A stretch of 64,000 nucleotides of DNA from an uncultured Clostridia bacterium (GTDB lineage: Bacteria > Bacillota > Clostridia > Christensenellales > CAG-917). The position numbers and the translations under genes were made by a program. A model generated the notes under the pieces. The model saw only the letters and a list, made by a program, of their open reading frames with translations. It had not been told where the DNA came from and searched no databases. The stretch covers positions 4,095 through 68,094 of the forward strand of contig CAKQLT010000001.1 of the NCBI GenBank assembly GCA_934254715.1. The letters run 5' to 3'. Below are positions 33,676-60,674 of this stretch, piece by piece (the stretch's first letter is position 1; each line of letters opens with the position of its first letter).

Positions 33676-34341
33676 TTATTCTGCGGTGTTTTCGGAATTT
33701 TCGGCGTTATTCGTATTATCAGCGTTTTCGGTGTTTTTGGTTTCGTTTTCCTTTTTGTCTTTGGGTTTGCGGAAAACGACGAATTTTTGCCACATAAATT
33801 CAAGCGCGAAGTTGATTATCATAACCGTGCCTTCCGCGATTATGCCCGCGCCGTCCGCGCCGATTGCGTCCACGAGCAATGATTTTATCGTGTGGACGTA
33901 CCAAGTTTGGAAGGGATAGAAGGGAACGTAGAACAAAAACGCCAAAATCATCGCTTTTGGAACGTTGCCCGCGTCTTTGAAGGTAAACTTACGGTTGAAA
34001 GTGAAGTTCCAAAGGATAGAGGCGCAAAGCGCAACGGTCGTTGCGATAAACGTGACCAAATCCATATCTTCGACAATGAAGTGAATGGTTTTGCCGTTCG
34101 AGGGTATGACCGCTTGCAAAATCGAGAACAGCACGATTTGAATTATGCCCGCGCTCGCCGCGCAAAGGGCGTATTTTATGAACTGCATAACGCCTTTTCT
34201 CTTTTCTTTTTTGGCGTTTTTCTCGGCTTGTTTGAGGCTCGTTTCGTACAGTATGCCTTTGGGGGATTCCGCAGAAGATTCTTCCGTTTGGGGAACGGAT
34301 TTCGGTTCGGCGTTTTCGTTTAAGTTTTTATCTTGTTCCAT
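33676..34341 (-). CDS. GtrA-family membrane protein with low-complexity N- and C-terminal extensions
   Basis: Four TM helices with the NFTFNRKFTF motif typical of GtrA-like proteins. AGAGGAA ribosome-binding site. Confidence 0.8.
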   Translation of the reverse strand: MEQDKNLNENAEPKSVPQTEESSAESPKGILYETSLKQAEKNAKKEKRKGVMQFIKYALCAASAGIIQIVLFSILQAVIPSNGKTIHFIVEDMDLVTFIATTVALCASILWNFTFNRKFTFKDAGNVPKAMILAFLFYVPFYPFQTWYVHTIKSLLVDAIGADGAGIIAEGTVMIINFALEFMWQKFVVFRKPKDKKENETKNTENADNTNNAENSENTAE

Positions 34342-34543
34342 AATATTTTCCTCTAAACACAGTTTAACATAACGACGTGAAATGTCAATACCGCTTAAAG
34401 AATCTTTGCGCTTAAAAGGCGTTTTTGAGAAATATTTTTGATGATAAAGAAAAATAAAGATTGTGAAAATTAAAATTTTATAAAAATAAGTGTTTAGATG
34501 TGTGAAAAAATAGAGAAATAAAAAATAATGAAATTGTAAAATT

Positions 34544-49293: not shown

Positions 49294-49941
49294 ATGGAAC
49301 ACGACGACAAGATGAAAGTTGACATTTACGATTTCGACAAAACGGCTATCCCGTACGACAGCGCGTTGCACTATTGGTTTTGGTCAATGGCGCACTGCCC
49401 GTGGACGCTTATTCTGTTGCCGTTCCAACTGTTTTGGGGATTCTTGATGGTCACCAAGATTTTGCCCGTGCCTATCTTCAAAAAGATAGCGTTCAATTTC
49501 GTGAGCCTTATCAACACCGAAAAAACCGTCAAAAAGTACTGGGATAAGCACCAAAAGGACATTTACGACTTTTTCAAACCCGAAAATCGCGACCCCAGCA
49601 GAAAGGTCGTGCTTATAAGCGCAAGCCCCGACTTTCTCATCGAAGAAATTGCAAAGAGAATGAAAATCGACTATTGCATAGCAAGTCCGCACAGCAAAAA
49701 GAACGGACATTTGCTCGGCAAGGTGTGCAGAAAGGAAGAAAAGGTGCGCAGACTCAACGAGATTTTGCCCGACGTCGAAGTCGAGAATGTGTACAGCGAC
49801 AGTATCGACCACGATAGATACATATTTGCACTCGGCAAACATTGCTATCTCGCAACGAAGGGCAACCTCAAAGAAATAGACTTTGCCACCGCCGTCAAGG
49901 AATACGACGAGCAAAAATCCAAAAAGAAAAAGCGCAAATAA
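49294..49941 (+). CDS. HAD-IB-like hydrolase with hydrophobic insert
   Basis: The DxDxT-type motif YDFDKTAIP near the N-terminus, and later ISASPDF and SDSIDHDRY. The start may be 49294 or 49312. Confidence 0.6.
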   Translation: MEHDDKMKVDIYDFDKTAIPYDSALHYWFWSMAHCPWTLILLPFQLFWGFLMVTKILPVPIFKKIAFNFVSLINTEKTVKKYWDKHQKDIYDFFKPENRDPSRKVVLISASPDFLIEEIAKRMKIDYCIASPHSKKNGHLLGKVCRKEEKVRRLNEILPDVEVENVYSDSIDHDRYIFALGKHCYLATKGNLKEIDFATAVKEYDEQKSKKKKRK

Positions 49942-50040
49942 ATCAAAAGTTAGCGGTTTAACAAGATTTTGATTCAAACCGAATCGAAGGGAGAATGGCG
50001 GAGATTTGGTGGAGATAAAACTTCATTTGGGAGGTCTTTT

Positions 50041-51303
50041 ATGGACAAGACGATCAAATGCCCCAATTGTGGGGAAGTGTTTGACAATGTAGACAATGAA
50101 TTTTTGAAGTGTTCTCATTGCGGCAAAATGTACAAAAACCCTTTTTATAAGAATGACGACACAGTCAAACAAGAACCTCAACCCGAACAAAAGCAGTCCG
50201 TGCAAGAAACGCAACCAACCAAAAGCGAGTGCGAAGCGCACGTCGACGGTGTCGGTGCAGATTTCGCAAATCGGCAACATACTACCACAGCCGAAGAAAT
50301 GAGTGAAAATCATACTGCGAAAACGCAAAACATCAATTCCGAAATTGATTCGAAGCAAACGGAAACGAAGGTTGAAAAGTCTGAATCGAGCAAGAAAGAA
50401 AACGCTTTTCAAAACAGAGGAAGCGACGCATTTATGCTCGTTATTACCAACACGATAAAAGAGTTTTTTGAATTCAAACAATTCAAGAGAATTCCCATAG
50501 GTCTTGCGATAGCCGCAGGCATTTTGCTTTCGCCGTTTTTGCTTGCTGTTATTTTTATGATTCCTGCGTTTTACATTTTGCAGTTCTGCTTCAAAATCGT
50601 TGCCGCACCTGCGGATTACCTTCTTCAAAACCTTCGCGATGAAAGCGATAATGCGATTGTGAAAGCCGTTGTATATTTCGTCGGTTATCCGTTTGTGTTT
50701 TTGATGAAAATCGCACTTTCCGCATTCAGTGTTGAATTCTTCGTTATGTACTTTTTCTTTATGCTGTTTGCTTGGATTTATGGCTGCGGCGGAATAAAAT
50801 TTCAACCTTTTATATTCGAGGCGTCAACCGATTGTAGTGCGCATCTCGAAGGTAAAGCGTCCACGAAGACCATCGCAATCATTCTCACCGTATGTATTAT
50901 CATCGGCGTGCTTATTTTTGGTTTGGCACTTGGCTTAGGCCTTGCAAATGCGGATTTCGACCACGGCAGTAGTGGTAACGGCGGATATAACAATGGCGGC
51001 AATAATAACATTTATAAAGATTCTTTCAATGAGAGTTTTTATATGTCGTCGCACGATAGTGGTCAAAGAATATGGACTTTCACGCCATCGACAAGCGGTT
51101 ATTACGAAATCAAAATTTTCGATAACGATAATAGAGCAAGCATTTATGTCTTTGTGGATGGTTCTACCAAATTGAGCACGACTTATTATAGCGATTCAAC
51201 CTCTATGTATTTGTATTCTGGAACGTCGTACACAATCAAGATTTATTATAGCAACGACAATTCAAGTAGCGATAGTGTGAATATCAGCATTTCACAAAAA
51301 TAA
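50041..51303 (+). CDS. zinc-ribbon / multi-TM / PPC-like C-terminal domain protein
   Basis: The ATG at 50041 follows GGAGG. Zinc ribbon: CPNCG...CSHCG. It continues with a polar linker, about 5 TM helices and a G/N-rich linker. The C-terminal WTFTPSTSGYYEIKIFDNDN...YSGTSYTIKIYYSNDNSS fits the PPC beta-sandwich pattern. Confidence 0.75.
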   Translation: MDKTIKCPNCGEVFDNVDNEFLKCSHCGKMYKNPFYKNDDTVKQEPQPEQKQSVQETQPTKSECEAHVDGVGADFANRQHTTTAEEMSENHTAKTQNINSEIDSKQTETKVEKSESSKKENAFQNRGSDAFMLVITNTIKEFFEFKQFKRIPIGLAIAAGILLSPFLLAVIFMIPAFYILQFCFKIVAAPADYLLQNLRDESDNAIVKAVVYFVGYPFVFLMKIALSAFSVEFFVMYFFFMLFAWIYGCGGIKFQPFIFEASTDCSAHLEGKASTKTIAIILTVCIIIGVLIFGLALGLGLANADFDHGSSGNGGYNNGGNNNIYKDSFNESFYMSSHDSGQRIWTFTPSTSGYYEIKIFDNDNRASIYVFVDGSTKLSTTYYSDSTSMYLYSGTSYTIKIYYSNDNSSSDSVNISISQK

Positions 51304-51330
51304 TTATAACACAAGCAAAAAAATCATAAC

Positions 51331-53724: not shown

Positions 53725-53750
53725 AATCCGCCGAAAACGGCGGATTTTTT
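53725..53750 (+). terminator. fhs intrinsic terminator
   Basis: aatccgccg-aaaa-cggcggatt followed by tttt. Confidence 0.75.
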
Positions 53751-53807
53751 ATGCGTTTTTATATTCGTTTACGATGTTTTTTATGAGGCTTTATATTGAT
53801 TTTTATA

Positions 53808-54038
53808 TTATATTTCTTTAATACCCAAAATATAGTCGCTCGAAACGTCGAGAACGCGGCATAGTTTTGCAAGCGTGTCGAGTGCGGGAAAAATGTCCTT
53901 TTTCATATACTTCGACACGGTTTGAGGGGATACGCCGATTTGGCGCGCTATTTCTTTTTGTTCGATTCCGCTACTCTTTATTGCGTCGCGCAATCTTTGT
54001 TGTATATCTTTCAGTTCCATACCGACATAATCGCACAT
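53808..54038 (-). CDS. XRE-family helix-turn-helix regulator
   Basis: IEQKEIARQIGVSPQTVSKYMKK is a classic Cro/CI HTH. 70-76 aa, with the start at 54020 or 54038. Confidence 0.85.
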   Translation of the reverse strand: MCDYVGMELKDIQQRLRDAIKSSGIEQKEIARQIGVSPQTVSKYMKKDIFPALDTLAKLCRVLDVSSDYILGIKEI

Positions 54039-54082
54039 TGGGTGATTTTTATCTTGACAATCGTATATTAGGTGATTATACT
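54039..54082 (+). promoter_or_regulatory. promoter with flanking direct repeats (candidate XRE operator)
   Basis: TTGACA (54054), a 17-nt spacer, then TATACT (54077). The repeat ttRggtgattWt occurs at 54039 and 54068, bracketing the -35 and covering the -10. Confidence 0.5.
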
Positions 54083-54115
54083 GAACGTAGATAATTTTAT
54101 TATGAGGGGGATTTT

Positions 54116-54355
54116 ATGGGATTATTCGGCAAAATCAAGCAATATGTCACCGATATCGTTTCGGACGAAATCTCGCCGTGTGTTTGTCCGCATTGCGGAT
54201 TCCGCATAAGGACGGAAAAAATCAAAATCAAATGTTGCGATTGCGGTGGCGTAAATACAATCAGATGGGTGGGAAATCTGCCCGTTTGTATGAAGTGTAA
54301 CGGACATTATTATGAAAGATTTTGTCCTAAATGCGGGGGTAATTTAGATGATTGA
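54116..54355 (+). CDS. small four-CxxC zinc-ribbon protein
   Basis: GAGGGGG ribosome-binding site. 79 aa with CPHC, CCDC, CMKC and CPKC pairs. Confidence 0.7.
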   Translation: MGLFGKIKQYVTDIVSDEISPCVCPHCGFRIRTEKIKIKCCDCGGVNTIRWVGNLPVCMKCNGHYYERFCPKCGGNLDD

Positions 54356-55172
54356 CAAAAGAAAAAAGGTTTTAACGATTTTGGTTTTGATTGCGGTTTT
54401 GTTTTCGGCGTTTGCCGTTTTGAGCGGCTGCAGTCCCGAAGACAGTTCTTGGCCGCCGCGAGCATTGACGAAAAAGATAACGTTAACCGTTCACGTCGAC
54501 GACGAAACGTACAAAGTGGACGCGTACGTCGGAAAGGAAGTAAGCGTTGCAATGCAAGCGATTACGGCAAAAACGGGTTATTATCTGACGGGATATTACG
54601 ACAGCGAAAGCGGCGGACAAATGTATTTCGACAGCGACGGTCAGTCGGTGAGCGTATGGTCAAAGAGTTATCCCACCGAGTTTTATGCGCAGTGGGAAAG
54701 CGTCGATAACTTCGTGTTGGCGAACGGCGCGAGTTGGAAAGATACGTACAAATACTTCGGCGAGCGTTATTTGACGTTCCATTGCACGGACGGCTTCAAA
54801 AGAAGCGCGATTGCGGGCAACAGGTCAAGAAACGTGCATATAACCTTAAGTTTCAAGATTCAATGTCCGGCGTATGCGGGATTTGGCAACGACCCGAACA
54901 AAGACATTGACCGAGCGGTGTTTATTACAGACAAAAACGATTCGACGGCGGAAATATATGCGAAAAAATATTTTACCGTGCACGGACTTGAATACAACGA
55001 GTTTTCACTCGACTTTACCGTAAGCGCAAGAGTCTTCACCGAGAGCAGTTTCAACAACAAAAAATCTTTGGCTGTGTATCTCAAATGGCTCGGAAGCGAC
55101 TACTATCCGACGTATATCAAGGACGTAAAAATTTCTTGTTACATAATGCCGAACGAAAGCGGTAATATGTGA
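54348..55172 (+). CDS. lipoprotein with a Listeria-Bacteroides-type repeat
   Basis: 8-nt overlap with the zinc-ribbon gene. Lipobox LSGC. KTGYYLTGYYDSESGGQMYFDSDGQSV...FYAQW matches the Flg_new/InlB B-repeat pattern. Confidence 0.75.
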   Translation: MIDKRKKVLTILVLIAVLFSAFAVLSGCSPEDSSWPPRALTKKITLTVHVDDETYKVDAYVGKEVSVAMQAITAKTGYYLTGYYDSESGGQMYFDSDGQSVSVWSKSYPTEFYAQWESVDNFVLANGASWKDTYKYFGERYLTFHCTDGFKRSAIAGNRSRNVHITLSFKIQCPAYAGFGNDPNKDIDRAVFITDKNDSTAEIYAKKYFTVHGLEYNEFSLDFTVSARVFTESSFNNKKSLAVYLKWLGSDYYPTYIKDVKISCYIMPNESGNM

Positions 55173-55195
55173 GTCGAGTTATAAACAAAAAGCAA

Positions 55196-55223
55196 AAGGC
55201 GGGGATTTCCCGCCTTTGTTTTT
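55196..55223 (+). terminator. intrinsic terminator
   Basis: aaggcggg-gattt-cccgcctt followed by tgttttt. Confidence 0.7.
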
Positions 55224-55410
55224 GCGTGGGGTGGTTTTGAAAAAATATTTGTAATTGTTTTATTTGCGAATGGAAAAAACCTTTTGTAGGTTGTATAATG
55301 GATTAAAGATTCAACGGAACGAGTGCAAACGAAACGAAAATTGCAAGGGCGTGTTCGTAAATCACGACCCGACCGTACAAGAACAGATTATTGAAATATA
55401 GAGGTGAAAT

Positions 55411-56073
55411 ATGGATTTAATTCAAGCAATGAATCAAAGACACGCGGTTCGCTCGTATATAGATAAGAAAATAGAGGGCGAAACGGCGGCGCAACTTCAA
55501 AACAAAATCGCCGAAATCAACGAAGAAAGCGGACTCAAACTTCAACTCGTTTTGAACGAAGAAAAGGCTTTCGGCGGCAGAATGGCGCATTACGGACATT
55601 TTGAAAACGTAAAGAACTACGTTGCGGTCGTTGGAAGCAAAGACGCGAAGTTGAGTGAAAAAGTCGGATATTACGGCGAAAAACTCGTGCTTTTTGCGCA
55701 AACTCTCGGACTTAACACGTGTTGGGTTGCGTTGTCCTACGACAAAACCGAGGGCAACTACAGCGTGGATAAGGGCGAAAAACTTGCGCTTGTCATCGCA
55801 ATCGGCTACGGAAATACGCAAGGCGTGCCGCACAAGAGCAAATATCCCCAAGACGTGTGCAAAGATTTTGCAAATTCGCCCGAATGGTTCAAAAACGGCG
55901 TAAAAGCGGCGTTGCTTGCGCCTACCGCCATAAATCAGCAAAAATTCTCGTTTGAACTAAAAGGCGACAATGTGATTGCAAAACCCGGTATCGGTTTTTA
56001 TACCAAAGTCGATTTGGGCATTGCGGAATACCATTTTGAACTCGGCGCGGGCAAAAAGGTTTTCAATATATAA
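55411..56073 (+). CDS. nitroreductase-family protein
   Basis: The MNQRHAVRSY start motif, the family-typical length of 220 aa, and a GAGGTG ribosome-binding site. Confidence 0.8.
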   Translation: MDLIQAMNQRHAVRSYIDKKIEGETAAQLQNKIAEINEESGLKLQLVLNEEKAFGGRMAHYGHFENVKNYVAVVGSKDAKLSEKVGYYGEKLVLFAQTLGLNTCWVALSYDKTEGNYSVDKGEKLALVIAIGYGNTQGVPHKSKYPQDVCKDFANSPEWFKNGVKAALLAPTAINQQKFSFELKGDNVIAKPGIGFYTKVDLGIAEYHFELGAGKKVFNI

Positions 56074-56122: not shown

Positions 56123-56866
56123 ATGAGAGTTATTCTTACGGGGGCATCGGGACGTATGGGCAAGCAGATGCTTGCCCTTTTTCAATCCGAGGGGGATATA
56201 GAGGTTATCGCCGTTGACAAAAACGACGGCGACGAGTCGGATTGCGTCGTAGCAAGATATTCAAACGTTTGCGACGTGAAAGAAAGCGCGGACGCAATCG
56301 TCGATTTTTCGTTGCATACGGCAACGTGCGAAGTGGTCGAATTTGCGGTGAAACGCAATATTCCGCTTGTGGTCGCAACGACGGGGCATACGGCATACGA
56401 GCGCGGATATATCGAAAAAGCGAGCGCGCAAATTCCCGTGTTCACGGCAAGCAATATGTCGATTGCAATCGCGTATCTCAAACGCTTTTCGGCAAAACTT
56501 GCGCAGATTTTTCCCGACGCAGACGTGGAAATCATAGAGGCGCACCACGCAAAAAAGATAGACTCGCCAAGCGGCACGGCACTTTCCGTTGCGAAGCGTA
56601 TCGTCAGAGAACGAGGGTTCGGCAAAGTCGTCGTCGGCAGAGGAATAGGCAGAGAAAAAGGGGAAGTGAACGTACATTCTTTGCGTATAGGCGCGTCGCT
56701 CGGCGAACACGAAGTGATAATCGACACGGCGGGCGAGCGCATAGTTTTGCGACACGAGGTTTTTTGCCGAAGCGTATACGCCGAAGGCGCATTGCGGGCG
56801 TTGCGATTTATCATTTCAAAGCCGAACGGCTTGTATGGAATCGAAGACTTACTGAATTTTCATTGA
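56123..56866 (+). CDS. dapB: 4-hydroxy-tetrahydrodipicolinate reductase
   Basis: GASGRMGK nucleotide loop and the EAHHAKKIDSPSGTAL signature. Confidence 0.9.
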   Translation: MRVILTGASGRMGKQMLALFQSEGDIEVIAVDKNDGDESDCVVARYSNVCDVKESADAIVDFSLHTATCEVVEFAVKRNIPLVVATTGHTAYERGYIEKASAQIPVFTASNMSIAIAYLKRFSAKLAQIFPDADVEIIEAHHAKKIDSPSGTALSVAKRIVRERGFGKVVVGRGIGREKGEVNVHSLRIGASLGEHEVIIDTAGERIVLRHEVFCRSVYAEGALRALRFIISKPNGLYGIEDLLNFH

Positions 56867-56936
56867 TGAAAGACGAAATGCTCATGATTTTGTCCGTGTT
56901 GCGTTTGTAGGCGGCTTGTGCTAATATAAAAACGAT

Positions 56937-57467
56937 ATGGATGCAAAAGAGTTCAATCGCAGAATTAAGAATGCGAGCAAAGACAAACAATCGTTTTTGA
57001 AGATTTATGAAGAGTACTATTCAAAAATAGTACTACATATTTCTGTGAAATTCGACGATTCGATTGCGCATGACATTGCGCACGACTTTTTTTGCAAATT
57101 GATTGAGGGAAAATTCGAACAAGTCGGCAGTGTGACTTCTCCGACGGCATGGGTTTATAAGGTGTGCGACAATCTTGCAATCAACAGTTTCAAGAAAGAC
57201 GCAAAATATGTTTCGATTGACGATTTCGACTTAGCAGGGAACGAAAGTGCTATTGACAGTCTGCTCGAAGTCAAAGAATTGTTTGAAAACCTCAACGAGA
57301 CAGAAAAAAAGACGGTTTATCTGCACGTTTTTGAGGGTTATTCGCTCAAAGAACTCGCTTGTCAATTCAAAATCAAATATGACAATTTCAGAAAAATGTA
57401 CGCGACAACGCTCAAAAAACTCAAAAAGATAATTGTCAATAATAACGGCGGTAAAAAGATAAAATGA
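56937..57467 (+). CDS. ECF-type sigma-70 family RNA polymerase sigma factor
   Basis: Region 2 (IAHDFFCKLIE, AWVYKVCDNLAINSFKK) and region 4 (FEGYSLKELACQFKIKYDNFRKMYATTLKKLK). The -10-like TG-c-TAATAT ends 9 nt before the ATG. Confidence 0.8.
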   Translation: MDAKEFNRRIKNASKDKQSFLKIYEEYYSKIVLHISVKFDDSIAHDIAHDFFCKLIEGKFEQVGSVTSPTAWVYKVCDNLAINSFKKDAKYVSIDDFDLAGNESAIDSLLEVKELFENLNETEKKTVYLHVFEGYSLKELACQFKIKYDNFRKMYATTLKKLKKIIVNNNGGKKIK

Positions 57468-58108
57468 AAGAAGAAAAACGCTTAAAAAAATATGCCGATG
57501 AGAAAATGAATAAATACAAAGATGACGAGTTTGTTAAATCGTTGTCCGATACTCATTTTGACAATACATCAAACAAAAAATTCTCATGGAAGTATGTAAG
57601 AGCCATTGCCGTCAGTTTGGTGGCTGTCTTTATCGTTGTGCTCTCGACCGTTATCGCAATCACTCAGAGAGAATGTGACAGCGAGTTATACGACATGATT
57701 CCATCGTCCGTATCGCAGATGAACCTCGATTTTGACTTTGTGCAGTTTGCCGATATCGCCGATGCGGAAGTCAATCTTATAGTGCTGAAAGATAGCAACG
57801 TTAAACAGTATTATTTTGCAAAAGTCAAACTCAACGGCAATGCCGATTTTTTTACGTTCGTTTGTGTGATTGATGATAAAGAGTATCCGTACGATTTTGG
57901 AGAATTCGAGCAAAGCAGACAATTTGGCGATTATCAAATAGGATATGAATTCTCAACCGAAAACGGCGATTCGGAAAGTTCACGTTATAGGGCTCGCGCA
58001 AGTTTGATAACCGACAAAGAAAAAATAGATATACATTACGAAGGTGAATCTGCGCTCAACGCCGATGCGTTTTTTGATATGCTGTCATCGATTTTAACAA
58101 GCAAATAA
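57464..58108 (+). CDS. single-pass membrane protein, probable anti-sigma factor
   Basis: ATGA overlap with the sigma gene. It has a short cytoplasmic N-terminus, one TM helix (AIAVSLVAVFIVVLSTVIAI) and a ~140-aa external domain. Confidence 0.55.
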   Translation: MKEEKRLKKYADEKMNKYKDDEFVKSLSDTHFDNTSNKKFSWKYVRAIAVSLVAVFIVVLSTVIAITQRECDSELYDMIPSSVSQMNLDFDFVQFADIADAEVNLIVLKDSNVKQYYFAKVKLNGNADFFTFVCVIDDKEYPYDFGEFEQSRQFGDYQIGYEFSTENGDSESSRYRARASLITDKEKIDIHYEGESALNADAFFDMLSSILTSK

Positions 58109-58204
58109 AAATATTTGTTGTAAAAATTTCCCATCTTTGGTTTTAGAATTGTCTATATATTGCGGCAATGAATTTTACCGTAAAATATTACGAGAGGAAA
58201 ACCT

Positions 58205-59404
58205 ATGAGAAAATTTATTATTAGTTCAACAGCCATACTAATTATGCTAGCCTGCGCTATTTGCACACTTCTACTCATACCGATTGATGAAAATATTGCG
58301 AGTGCGGCTTTGGAAACGGCGCATATAGAAAACTCATACGTCAATCTAATGAACGAGGAGTACGGATCTAATGTGCGCTTGGCAAAAATCAAACAATTAA
58401 GGGACCTTGATAATAACACATATACATTGTTGGAATGTGAGCCTACAGGATATGCTATTGTATGCAATGATGCAGAAACAATGGTAGAATATTCTGCTTT
58501 TAGTGAGTCTCCATATATTGGTTACAACGAAAACTTATATTATTTTGGCCCTACATATTTCAGTGTATTACAAGGCAATTCATTTGTCGATCTCATGAGC
58601 GGAGAGGTTCTTTTTTCTTTGGACAGCGAAGCAGAAGTTTTAGGAAAAGTACAAAATGCATCAAAGGATATGCATGACACTTTAGTAGCACAGGCGGCAG
58701 AATGCGGTGATAGTGTTTCTACCATGAGCGAGGGGTGCGATTTATATGGTACACATTGGACATGTGTAAATAATTATGGCTTTTTTACAACAAAAACAAC
58801 GAATGCGTCCTTCAGTTATTATCAAGAGGGCAATTCAGGTTGTTGCGGATACATTGCGGCATCATTATTGTTAGGGTACTATGATCAATTTGTGAAAAGA
58901 TGTGTTCCTGATAAATTCATGGAAATAGATAGTTACGGTTATAAAAGGTTTAAATATAGTAGTTCATCTGGCTATTATGGGAGCGGTGAGTTCACACAAC
59001 ATTTATTGAACTTTAAAACACGCAGCGACACAAGCACTACGTCAACAATAGTAAGAGAGTGTTTGACAAAATATTTTAATTATTACGGATATAAGAACAT
59101 GGGCATTTATGATATGATAACACCGTTATTTAGCAATTTAACACTCAAAAACTTAATTGATAAAAGCACTCCGTCAATTCTCTTTGGAAGTTTGGAGAAG
59201 CCAACTTCTCCGCCATCAACAGGACAGGCCGACGGACATGGAAATCATGCGGTTGTGGTTTATGGCTATCGAAAAGGCGCAAACAATGGATCTATTTATT
59301 CGTTCTTAGTTCACTATGGTTGGTCTGGACGGTCGCAATCGACAATAAACTATATAGGCACAAGCACATTTGGCTCAATGCTTAGATTAAGATATGCAAC
59401 TTAA
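58205..59404 (+). CDS. secreted papain-fold cysteine peptidase (C39-like/C10-like) with propeptide-like N-terminal domain
   Basis: Signal peptide. NSGCCGYIAASLLLGYYD (candidate nucleophile Cys) and GHGNHAVVVYGY (candidate catalytic His). The N-terminal NNTYTLLECEPTGYAIVCND resembles C10-type propeptide/inhibitor domains. AT-rich codon usage. Confidence 0.65.
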   Translation: MRKFIISSTAILIMLACAICTLLLIPIDENIASAALETAHIENSYVNLMNEEYGSNVRLAKIKQLRDLDNNTYTLLECEPTGYAIVCNDAETMVEYSAFSESPYIGYNENLYYFGPTYFSVLQGNSFVDLMSGEVLFSLDSEAEVLGKVQNASKDMHDTLVAQAAECGDSVSTMSEGCDLYGTHWTCVNNYGFFTTKTTNASFSYYQEGNSGCCGYIAASLLLGYYDQFVKRCVPDKFMEIDSYGYKRFKYSSSSGYYGSGEFTQHLLNFKTRSDTSTTSTIVRECLTKYFNYYGYKNMGIYDMITPLFSNLTLKNLIDKSTPSILFGSLEKPTSPPSTGQADGHGNHAVVVYGYRKGANNGSIYSFLVHYGWSGRSQSTINYIGTSTFGSMLRLRYAT

Positions 59405-59417
59405 ATAGGAGGCATTT

Positions 59418-60122
59418 ATGAAGTTAAGGGGTGCAAAAATATTGATATTGCTTGCGGCGATATGTTGCATATGCGTCACAATACTTTGGGGGTGCAATGA
59501 TACGATTTCCTACAGCAAAACGATTTTCATAGATGATTTTAGCGATACGTATACGATTTCTATACCCGTAAAAGTAAAAAATCATTCGGTGCTACCAACG
59601 TCACAAAGGTCGTTTGAGTATAGCAAAGGTTTTGATAAGTTGTACGAGGCCATATCGGCATCGTCGTATGCATCTTCGGTTTATAAAAGCGGCGGCAAAA
59701 TCATAGTTGACATTTGCGGTGTTGCGGAAAGAACGTATAGTTGTATGATTTATCAGACGGGGGAAAAGAATAAGTATATCGTAGATTCCATGACGTATGT
59801 TTTGGAATGGGCAAACAACCGTTCGATATTCTTTCCTTCATATCTGTTGAACAAAGAAATTGCACCGTCGGATGCAGAGGGAACGATATATCGTTGCGAA
59901 TTCGATATCGAGGCGTTGAAAAACTATTACATTGAGCGCGGTTATTATGCTCAAATCGACGGCAATACGTTGAAAGTTGTCTGTATGTTGAGATATCCGA
60001 ATTCGTCATTCGGCGACGAAAGCAATTATGGTTATAAGGCGATTGCGTGGTCTGTTGTTTATGAAAACGAAAACGATATAAGATTCGGCGATGTTTCGGA
60101 TGACTATAACATAAGGCTGTAA
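59418..60122 (+). CDS. lipoprotein of unknown function downstream of the peptidase
   Basis: AGGAGG ribosome-binding site, lipobox LWGC, 234 aa, AT-rich codon usage. Confidence 0.7.
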   Translation: MKLRGAKILILLAAICCICVTILWGCNDTISYSKTIFIDDFSDTYTISIPVKVKNHSVLPTSQRSFEYSKGFDKLYEAISASSYASSVYKSGGKIIVDICGVAERTYSCMIYQTGEKNKYIVDSMTYVLEWANNRSIFFPSYLLNKEIAPSDAEGTIYRCEFDIEALKNYYIERGYYAQIDGNTLKVVCMLRYPNSSFGDESNYGYKAIAWSVVYENENDIRFGDVSDDYNIRL

Positions 60123-60227
60123 AAAGCAAAACGGAAATCGGAAAAAGGGCGCAAACGAGCGTCCTTTTTTCGATTTGACAAAGAATATTATGTGTGAATT
60201 TGCTGCAAACTATTGTGGAGGTGAAAT

Positions 60228-60674
60228 ATGAAAATTTCTTACAAACCTACTATTTTGGCGGCGGGCGGAATATGCCTTATCGTTGCGCTGTTCGTGATTT
60301 GCGGTTGCTTTTGTGCGCCGAAAGAGGTTGCGGACGCAGGGTTTTGCGATTTGCTGACCCCCGAAATCGTAAAGTTCTACGAGGAAGAAATCGCAAAAGA
60401 GCAAGTTTTGTCCTCAAAGAGCGAGCAAAACGTAAAAGCGATTGCTTCTAGGTTCGGAATCGACGAGCAAAAGGCAAAATGCACAATATTGCTTTTCGAT
60501 TTTTCAAAGCGTACGGGCGGCGGAATAACCTTTCCCGAAATCGCAAATATGAGCGAGTTCAAGATGCTTGCGTTTGCAAAACAGCGCGGCGAAATCTACG
60601 GACAAACCCTCAGCAAAGAGGATAAGGAAGAATTGAAACAAAAGGCGTCCGCTTTGTTGGGAATCAGATTGTAA
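60228..60674 (+). CDS. small membrane-anchored/lipoprotein-like hypothetical protein
   Basis: GGAGGTG ribosome-binding site. N-terminal hydrophobic segment ending in ICGC. 148 aa. Confidence 0.6.
   Translation: MKISYKPTILAAGGICLIVALFVICGCFCAPKEVADAGFCDLLTPEIVKFYEEEIAKEQVLSSKSEQNVKAIASRFGIDEQKAKCTILLFDFSKRTGGGITFPEIANMSEFKMLAFAKQRGEIYGQTLSKEDKEELKQKASALLGIRL

Follow-up and report, generated by a model that had tools for sequence, protein, structure and literature searches.

A horizontally mobile four-gene island in a gut Clostridia genome encodes an ECF-type sigma factor, a predicted secreted cysteine peptidase and a lipoprotein

Results

A mobile island between dapB and orf148

We analyzed a stretch of 64,000 nucleotides (nt) from an uncultured Clostridia bacterium (contig CAKQLT010000001.1 of assembly GCA_934254715.1), referred to here as the window, and found that the region between dapB and the gene orf148 is a real, horizontally mobile four-gene island of a gut Clostridia genome. 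Its four open reading frames (ORFs) share one orientation, on the plus strand. They encode a sigma-70 family sigma factor of the extracytoplasmic function (ECF) type (56937-57467; 176 amino acids (aa), regions 2 and 4 only), an anti-sigma-like single-pass membrane protein (57464-58108; 214 aa), a secreted prepro cysteine peptidase (58205-59404; 399 aa) and a lipoprotein (59418-60122; 234 aa). We think it somewhat more probable than not that the island is an accessory mobile module in which a core of staphopain-like zymogen and lipoprotein is placed under ECF sigma/anti-sigma-like control.

The nearest relative found, L044 (GCA_963620965.1), lacks the island, and its dapB is directly followed by orf148. 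The flanking proteins of L044 share 99.1% (fhs), 97.8% and 98.4% (transketolase) and 97.6% (glutamine synthetase) identity with those of the window. In blastn the two sequences are colinear at 92-96% up to position 56838, and the alignment resumes from 60218. The variable segment in between (56839-60217, 3379 bp, no strand assigned) is present in the window and in L001, L002 and L012; it is absent from L044, L045 and the more distant L046, the last two also having dapB and orf148 adjacent. In L001 and L002, whose fhs is about 90% identical, the island occupies the same site. Because the island proteins of these two loci are 90-94% identical to those of the window and thus about as conserved as core genes, either the island is old in this lineage and has been kept by some members only, or recombination in its flanks has carried it from one relative to another. 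Moreover, dapB (56123-56866) and orf148 (60228-60674) are only 90% and 83% identical between the window and L044, whereas the surrounding genes reach 97.6-99%, which suggests recombination tracts that reach into the island flanks. The last 28 nt or so of dapB lie inside the variable segment. We found no convincing flanking direct or inverted repeats that could serve as attachment sites, no integrase or recombinase gene in the island and no tRNA target nearby, and searches of IMG/VR, INPHARED and PLSDB gave no match that would indicate phage or plasmid carriage. As a separate observation, the 195-nt spacer between dapB and orf148 in L044 (L044:6806-7000) contains five short near-perfect hairpins with TGAAAT-like spacers and resembles a small palindromic repeat array.

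The island also stands out in its composition. Windowed G+C was 0.378 for the island vs 0.469 for the window, which bears out the AT-rich island described in an earlier note on this DNA, and no other 3.2-kb stretch of the 64 kb has a lower G+C content (median 0.478, 5th percentile 0.414). At third codon positions the G+C content is 0.325 in the peptidase gene vs a gene mean of 0.56 (standard deviation 0.09), and 0.42-0.46 in the genes of the sigma factor, the membrane protein and the lipoprotein. In native genes of the window, 0.6% of the leucine codons are CTA and 1.1% are TTA, and 5% of the serine codons are TCA. The corresponding counts in the peptidase gene are 4 of 35 (11%), 14 of 35 (40%) and 11 of 43 (26%), and one TCA and three CTA codons fall within its first 24 codons, as had been pointed out earlier. 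In contrast, the shortage of long antisense ORFs, which the earlier note had read as a foreign mark, was uninformative: such ORFs are scarce because the island is AT-rich, and a 142-aa antisense ORF is found inside the lipoprotein gene. The proposed horizontal origin is nevertheless supported by the empty site of L044, the unrelated contexts of the module elsewhere and the deviant composition. Besides, the codon use of the peptidase gene is markedly more deviant than that of its three island neighbors, in L001 as in the window.

The gene layout was confirmed as previously described, including the lipobox discussed below. The genes of the sigma factor and the membrane protein overlap by ATGA, a gap of 96 nt separates the latter from the peptidase gene, and the lipoprotein gene, preceded by AGGAGG, starts 13 nt after the peptidase stop. 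The island is closed by an intrinsic terminator (60135-60176, plus strand), an 18-bp hairpin followed by a U-run, with a dG of -26.1 kcal/mol and a z of -6.2; none of 200 shuffles folded equally well. A generic scan for sigma-70 promoters and terminators was uninformative, since it returned no more sites than expected and missed the real terminator. No Rfam families or tRNA genes were detected near the island.

The peptidase is a predicted papain-fold enzyme

The peptidase reaches 53.3 bits against the NCBIfam model NF045837, "putative cysteine peptidase" (cut-off 45, residues 188-383); its counterparts in L004 and L018 also score above the cut-off and that of L029 below it. A signal peptide (about residues 1-35, IASA-A) precedes a beta-rich N-terminal domain (about 55-140) and a helix (143-167); a linker (169-173) then leads to the catalytic domain of predicted papain fold (about 176-399). 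In an alignment of 34 homologues, C214 is conserved in at least 90%, H348 is invariant, and a motif H370-x-x-W373 is conserved with a nearly invariant H370 and an invariant W373. The Cys and His motifs singled out in the earlier note correspond to C214 and H348, so that both motifs are confirmed. In the AlphaFold2 model (predicted local distance difference test (pLDDT) 82), C214 starts a helix (214-229) and H348 lies in a strand (345-357), the predicted placement being that of the papain fold (clan CA). The best matches of the model in the PDB (Foldseek) were two chains of staphopain B, 1y4h_A (E 5.9e-4) and 1pxv_A (E 2.2e-3). With its conserved Cys-His dyad and with staphopain as top structural match, the enzyme bears out the analogy with staphopain drawn before.

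The peptidase itself belongs to no Pfam family, and sequence searches of the PDB with the protein and with the family profile gave nothing meaningful. Peptidase_C47 matched neither the window protein nor any of its 34 relatives at E<=1. Peptidase_C10 matched one of the 34 weakly (E 0.006), with no Inhibitor_I69 among the matches listed, and Peptidase_C39_2 gave weak matches in 19 of the 34 (best E 8e-6) and none in the window protein. The N-terminal beta-rich domain is the best-conserved part of the family. It has no match among Pfam or other hidden Markov models, so that its earlier description as C10-propeptide-like is unproven. The low-confidence linker at residues 169-173 is a plausible candidate for the maturation site.

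The lipoprotein is conserved next to the peptidase

The lipoprotein has the lipobox LWGC in the window and L-[AS]-[AG]-C in its homologues, and Cys26 is invariant in the alignment. It belongs to no Pfam or NCBIfam family, and its own family is tiny: among 1.84 billion proteins it has 29 representatives. In 16 distinct sequences, the gene right after that of the peptidase encodes a homologue; this holds for every complete locus with a peptidase at least 38% identical to that of the window and for some more distant ones. The lipoproteins of Izemoplasmatales-type loci, whose peptidases are only about 25% identical, are still homologous to the window family (hhalign probability 96%, 168 columns). 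This gene pairing marks the lipoprotein as a conserved, putative cognate partner of the peptidase.

A fold search of the PDB with the lipoprotein model (pLDDT 79) found no significant relative (best E 0.036); YwmB, Tsi3 and anticalins surfaced at E 0.04-0.2 only, and the best lipocalin (anticalin) matches had an E of about 0.2 and a probability of at most 0.16. We considered whether the lipoprotein might be paralogous to the N-terminal domain of the peptidase or to the external domain of the membrane protein, and rejected both (hhalign probability below 3% in each case). A staphostatin-like protein was rejected as well, as size, location and predicted fold all differ.

The sigma factor, its membrane partner and their promoters

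The sigma factor scores 48.4 bits against TIGR02937 (cut-off 42.9) and is thereby assigned to the ECF type (group 4); its matches to the Pfam families for Sigma70_r2, r4 and ECF are weak and below thresholds. A hydrophobicity scan placed one transmembrane helix at about residues 47-67 of the membrane protein, which leaves about 45 residues in the cytoplasm and about 145 outside. In every related module the sigma gene is followed by an equivalent membrane-protein gene. We call the protein anti-sigma-like because of its translational coupling, its topology and this recurrence after the sigma gene.

Upstream of the peptidase gene we identified a bipartite, ECF-type promoter-like motif by comparative conservation. 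In the window it reads TTTCCC-N16-TTGTCTA (58127-58155, plus strand) and lies 49 nt upstream of the peptidase ATG. The form TTYCMC-N16-TTGTCTA is found at the same place in the window, L001, L002, L012, L047 and L048, and L038 has CTTCAC-N16-TTGTCTA; the 16-nt spacing is fixed while the surrounding intergenic sequence is unalignable. The motif has no other match in the 64-kb window even with one mismatch (0.20 expected). Among 48 loci, exact matches were restricted to the peptidase-upstream sites of L001, L002, L012, L047 and L048, plus one extra in L047, where a second exact copy lies just upstream of the anti-sigma gene. In L042, a locus without a sigma gene, the motif is absent and a near-consensus TTGACA-16-TAATAC takes its place. 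The loci referred to below as clade B have their own conserved ACCGAA-N16/17-TGTAG at the same position. In its TGTC core the motif is similar to -10 elements known from ECF promoters.

A different arrangement was found upstream of the sigma gene. A housekeeping (sigma-A)-type promoter-like site, TTGCGT-17 nt-TAATAT (56899-56927, plus strand), can be read from the sequence there; it ends 9 nt before the ATG, and no Shine-Dalgarno sequence is present, so the leader would be very short or absent. The diverged copies show TTGCAA-17-TATGAT (L038), TTGACT-17-TACAAT (L047) and TTGTGT-17-TATTAT (L048). All four diverged clade A copies thus share TTGnnn-17-TAnnAT, 9-12 nt before the start codon, without a Shine-Dalgarno sequence. 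The bipartite motif was not detected upstream of the sigma gene (56800-56936) even with three mismatches. The sigma operon therefore appears constitutive and nearly leaderless, and the peptidase-lipoprotein operon appears sigma-dependent.

These sites change part of the regulatory picture drawn in the earlier note. That the sigma factor drives the protease gains support, through a motif other than the one proposed, namely TTYCMC-N16-TTGTCTA in sigma-bearing loci. The 13-nt motif reported as shared between 56885 and 58169 is present but at chance level: the two copies match at 10 of 13 positions, and 46-57% of shuffled intergenic pairs do equally well. It also differs in position relative to the two promoter-like sites, and its degenerate consensus has few scattered extra matches of no obvious relevance, so we rejected it as a promoter. 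Self-regulation of the sigma gene is unsupported, because the gene lacks an ECF-type motif and has a conserved housekeeping-type promoter-like site instead. An autoregulated promoter is common but not obligatory for ECF sigma factors.

Two side observations concern these regulatory sequences. Upstream of a gene for a GtrA-family membrane protein (33676-34341, minus strand), the bipartite motif occurs twice on the minus strand with two mismatches per copy (34354-34382 and 34479-34507); these copies could be due to chance or mark a second sigma target. Moreover, the peptidase genes of L038, L047, L048 and L042 have long 5' leaders in which a mini-ORF of two to three codons comes after a strong Shine-Dalgarno sequence (MRF* in L038:5930-5950, MNY* in L047:4800-4830, MYD* in L048:2590-2620 and MK* in L042:2520-2545). 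These mini-ORFs may be a translational control element. The window leader has only an 18-codon upstream ORF from 58168, without a Shine-Dalgarno sequence.

The module recurs in other genomes

That the four genes would be found together elsewhere was confirmed: modules with peptidases 44-73% identical to that of the window occur in at least five other contexts, in two of them beside rolling-circle Rep genes that are homologous to each other. The four-gene set with a peptidase of 69-73% identity lies in unrelated surroundings in L038 (next to PcfJ, PcfK, a methylase and a Rep gene), L047 (spore genes) and L048 (a Rce1-like gene). In L015, L018-L021, L024, L040 and L041, with peptidases of 44-47% identity, the four genes are followed by an ATP-binding cassette (ABC) ATPase and an ABC-2 permease.

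The peptidase-lipoprotein pair is shared by clade A (window, L001, L038, L042, L047, L048) and clade B (L003, L014, L015, L018, L040 and others), and also by L022, L027 and the Izemoplasmatales-type loci. The genes for the ECF sigma factor and the membrane protein adjoin the peptidase in four of the five clade A contexts and in three clade B lineages; the pair occurs without a sigma gene in L003, L013, L014, L023 and L042. We infer that peptidase and lipoprotein form the constant core, to which a sigma pair is often, and an ABC pair occasionally, added. In L004-L009 and L031, where the peptidases are 24-30% identical, another ECF subtype and a membrane partner occur in either gene order and without a lipoprotein gene.

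Genes linked to mobility were seen only beside related copies and not in the window island. The Rep protein adjacent to L038 is a rolling-circle Rep (REP_ORF2-G2P) and is 37-51% identical to proteins adjoining L018, L020 and L024, and a 706-aa protein beside L038 is 56% identical to one beside L018 (regions L038:8195-11328 and L018:1-3206). Because the Rep and the roughly 710-aa proteins are homologous across clade A and clade B carriers, the module is cargo of one mobile-element family in two clades. These findings suggest that gut Clostridia carry integrative elements of a family not described before. L041 adjoins a serine recombinase gene.

Further variable segments of the window

Two further segments of the window within 13 kb are absent from L044. 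The first (49932-51319) holds a 420-aa ORF (50041-51303) with a G+C content of 0.40 and no Pfam family. In the second (53739-56046), an HTH_3 regulator is encoded on the minus strand (53808-54038). This segment also contains an ORF of 79 aa, a lipoprotein of 274 aa (54348-55172) and a nitroreductase of the TM1586 type (55411-56073). The fhs-tkt region is a hotspot of gene gain and loss.

Discussion

Taken as an ECF-controlled module, the island would work as follows. The sigma/anti-sigma operon would be continuously transcribed from the housekeeping-type promoter, as its conserved hexamers suggest. By analogy with ECF systems, a cue outside the membrane would be sensed by the external domain of about 145 residues and free the sigma factor, which would then direct RNA polymerase to TTTCCC-N16-TTGTCTA at 58127-58155, the site favored by comparative conservation. 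Gene layout and hairpin indicate that the resulting bicistronic peptidase-lipoprotein mRNA would end at the terminator at 60135-60176. The peptidase would be exported by the Sec system, mature by removal of its N-terminal domain near the disordered linker 169-173 and cleave extracellular substrates through the predicted residues Cys214 and His348. On the outer face of the membrane, the lipoprotein would bind the peptidase, as gene pairing and precedents suggest. Strict pairing, tight coupling and three precedents (staphostatin, Spi and Bfi) favor a tentative role of the lipoprotein as a producer-protecting inhibitor or immunity factor, which we hold possible at perhaps one chance in three; a docking or maturation role is less probable.

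Several observations weigh against this picture. The membrane protein has no Pfam or NCBIfam match and no recognizable anti-sigma domain among the types considered (class I anti-sigma domain (ASD), zf-HC2, RskA and DUF4179), and the same is true of its counterparts in L004, L018, L029 and L038 with regard to Pfam and NCBIfam anti-sigma domains. The -35 half TTTCMC is not the classic "AAC" element of ECF promoters, and the promoter assignments draw on five to six related loci. The Foldseek match to staphopain is modest, with a target-normalized TM-score of 0.47. Staphostatins, lipocalins, Spi and the N-terminal domain of the peptidase are all dissimilar to the lipoprotein, so that an inhibitor role is argued from position and analogy. 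Finally, no lipoprotein accompanies the distant peptidases of L004-L009, and those of L049 and L050 have no partner genes at all; the partnership is therefore not obligatory for the peptidase fold.

Other explanations have to be weighed as well. Clade B and Izemoplasmatales-type loci include the ABC ATPase and ABC-2 permease, the ATPase has the lantibiotic-protection model TIGR03740 as its best NCBIfam match (E 2e-53), and the module is mobile and variably present like much resistance cargo. This would agree with a protection against an antimicrobial peptide or bacteriocin, in which the peptidase degrades the peptide, the lipoprotein sequesters it in the manner of LanI, the ABC-2 exporter, in loci that have one, expels it and the ECF pair senses envelope stress. 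We consider such a function unlikely, as the window island has no ABC genes, the TIGR03740 score of 181 bits is far under the cut-off of 310 and the lipoprotein model does not match NisI/SpaI-type structures; the large conserved pro-domain, moreover, suggests a zymogen-type protease. A peptidase that attacks envelope proteins or the cell wall of competitors, with the lipoprotein as immunity protein, would account for the tight coupling (the 13-nt gap in the window and an overlapping stop/start in L018), for the tiny, fast-evolving partner family and for an AT-rich, mobile and variably present module. The immunity protein Tsi3 is among the top structural matches of the lipoprotein, although not significantly (E 0.076). 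However, the top structural matches of the peptidase are proteases and do not include NlpC/P60 or CHAP cell-wall amidases, and no secretion-system or toxin-delivery genes lie nearby. We therefore regard interbacterial antagonism as doubtful, and the same low confidence applies to its fullest form, an ECF-controlled mobile effector/immunity system that damages the envelope of competing gut Clostridia or of the producer, with the lipoprotein as membrane-anchored immunity factor.

The remaining explanations concern the link between the two gene pairs. Dedicated site-1 proteases such as PrsW are known from other ECF systems, and sigma/anti-sigma genes are repeatedly linked to this peptidase family, with two ECF subtypes and in either gene order. 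The peptidase could thus act as the site-1 protease on the external part of the anti-sigma protein, with the lipoprotein restraining it. We give this a slim chance, since the peptidase-lipoprotein pair occurs without a sigma/anti-sigma gene in the five sigma-less loci named above, the window island offers no other candidate output gene and the motif is unique in the 64 kb. A mere juxtaposition, in which the sigma pair and the peptidase pair travel together without being regulator and target, would be compatible with an anti-sigma assignment that lacks domain support and with promoter assignments made by sequence comparison. It is very improbable, because the sigma/anti-sigma pair adjoins the peptidase across 25-91% peptidase identity and in many contexts, and because the promoter-like motif correlates with the presence of the sigma gene.

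The ECF-controlled peptidase module has counterparts in several known systems. Staphostatins are cytoplasmic proteins of about 110 aa that form an eight-stranded, lipocalin-like beta-barrel. The staphopain/staphostatin systems of Staphylococcus aureus (MEROPS C47; scpAB, sspABC) share with the window a secreted prepro papain-type cysteine peptidase and a dedicated partner gene immediately after it in one operon. However, the resemblance of the window peptidase is structural only, without membership in Peptidase_C47 by sequence, its partner is a 234-aa extracytoplasmic lipoprotein with no significant lipocalin or staphostatin match, and an ECF sigma pair is attached to the module. SpeB of Streptococcus pyogenes (C10) is likewise a secreted zymogen cysteine protease with an adjacent gene for its cognate inhibitor, Spi. 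In this case the inhibitor is a paralogue of the SpeB propeptide, whereas a profile comparison of the window lipoprotein with the peptidase N-terminal domain gave no match. In Bacteroides fragilis, C10 protease genes (Bfp) are co-transcribed with inhibitor-like Bfi genes located within 35 bp, the Bfi partners carry lipoprotein or Sec signals, and some bfp copies reside on mobile elements (PMC2873492). The two systems thus have in common a gut commensal host, a cysteine protease with an adjacent partner gene, lipoprotein signals and mobile copies. They differ in the peptidase family, with a weak C10 match in only one of the 34 window relatives, and in the partner, as Bfi is small and staphostatin-like; besides, no link to an ECF sigma factor has been described for Bfp/Bfi.

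On the regulatory side, translational coupling joins the sigma gene to the gene of a single-pass membrane protein behind it, as in ECF/anti-sigma operons of Firmicutes such as sigW-rsiW of Bacillus subtilis. The B. subtilis sigY operon (sigY-yxlCDEFG) ends with ABC transporter genes, and the operon of the clade B relatives similarly ends in the ABC ATPase and ABC-2 permease. In contrast to these operons, the window pair shows neither a recognizable anti-sigma domain nor a sign of autoregulation, and its candidate target TTTCMC-N16-TTGTCTA lacks the usual "AAC" -35 core. With NF045837, a Mycoplasma subfamily, the window shares a catalytic domain above the family cut-off; the model covers this domain only, leaving the N-terminal domain, the lipoprotein and the sigma link outside its definition, and the function of the family is itself only "putative". 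A link between this family and the IgG (immunoglobulin G)-cleaving CysP of avian mycoplasmas, an enzyme documented in the literature, was considered but is not claimed here.

The searchable literature yielded no description of a module that joins an ECF-linked cysteine peptidase and a lipoprotein. Each part (the ECF pair, the clan CA protease, the partner lipoprotein) belongs to a known kind, and the module is a variation on the known theme of a protease plus its cognate partner rather than a novel type of system. What is new is the ECF pair on a staphopain-like protease, a partner family without recognized relatives, the candidate promoter and the Rep-type carriage.

The cysteine proteases that pathogens secrete, staphopain and SpeB among them, have been studied in depth, whereas their counterparts in uncultured gut Clostridia are not. 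The island is a compact transferable unit of sensor, sigma factor, candidate promoter, protease and partner, which could be rebuilt in vitro to learn the substrates of a commensal protease, how it is restrained and which signal activates it. The presence and absence of the island among near-identical genomes permits natural comparisons, and the sigma factor with its candidate promoter would add an orthogonal regulatory pair. If the effector/immunity explanation were true, the lipoproteins would have a fold not seen before and form a new protease-inhibitor or immunity-protein family. The lipoprotein, if proven to be an inhibitor, would represent a new inhibitor class.

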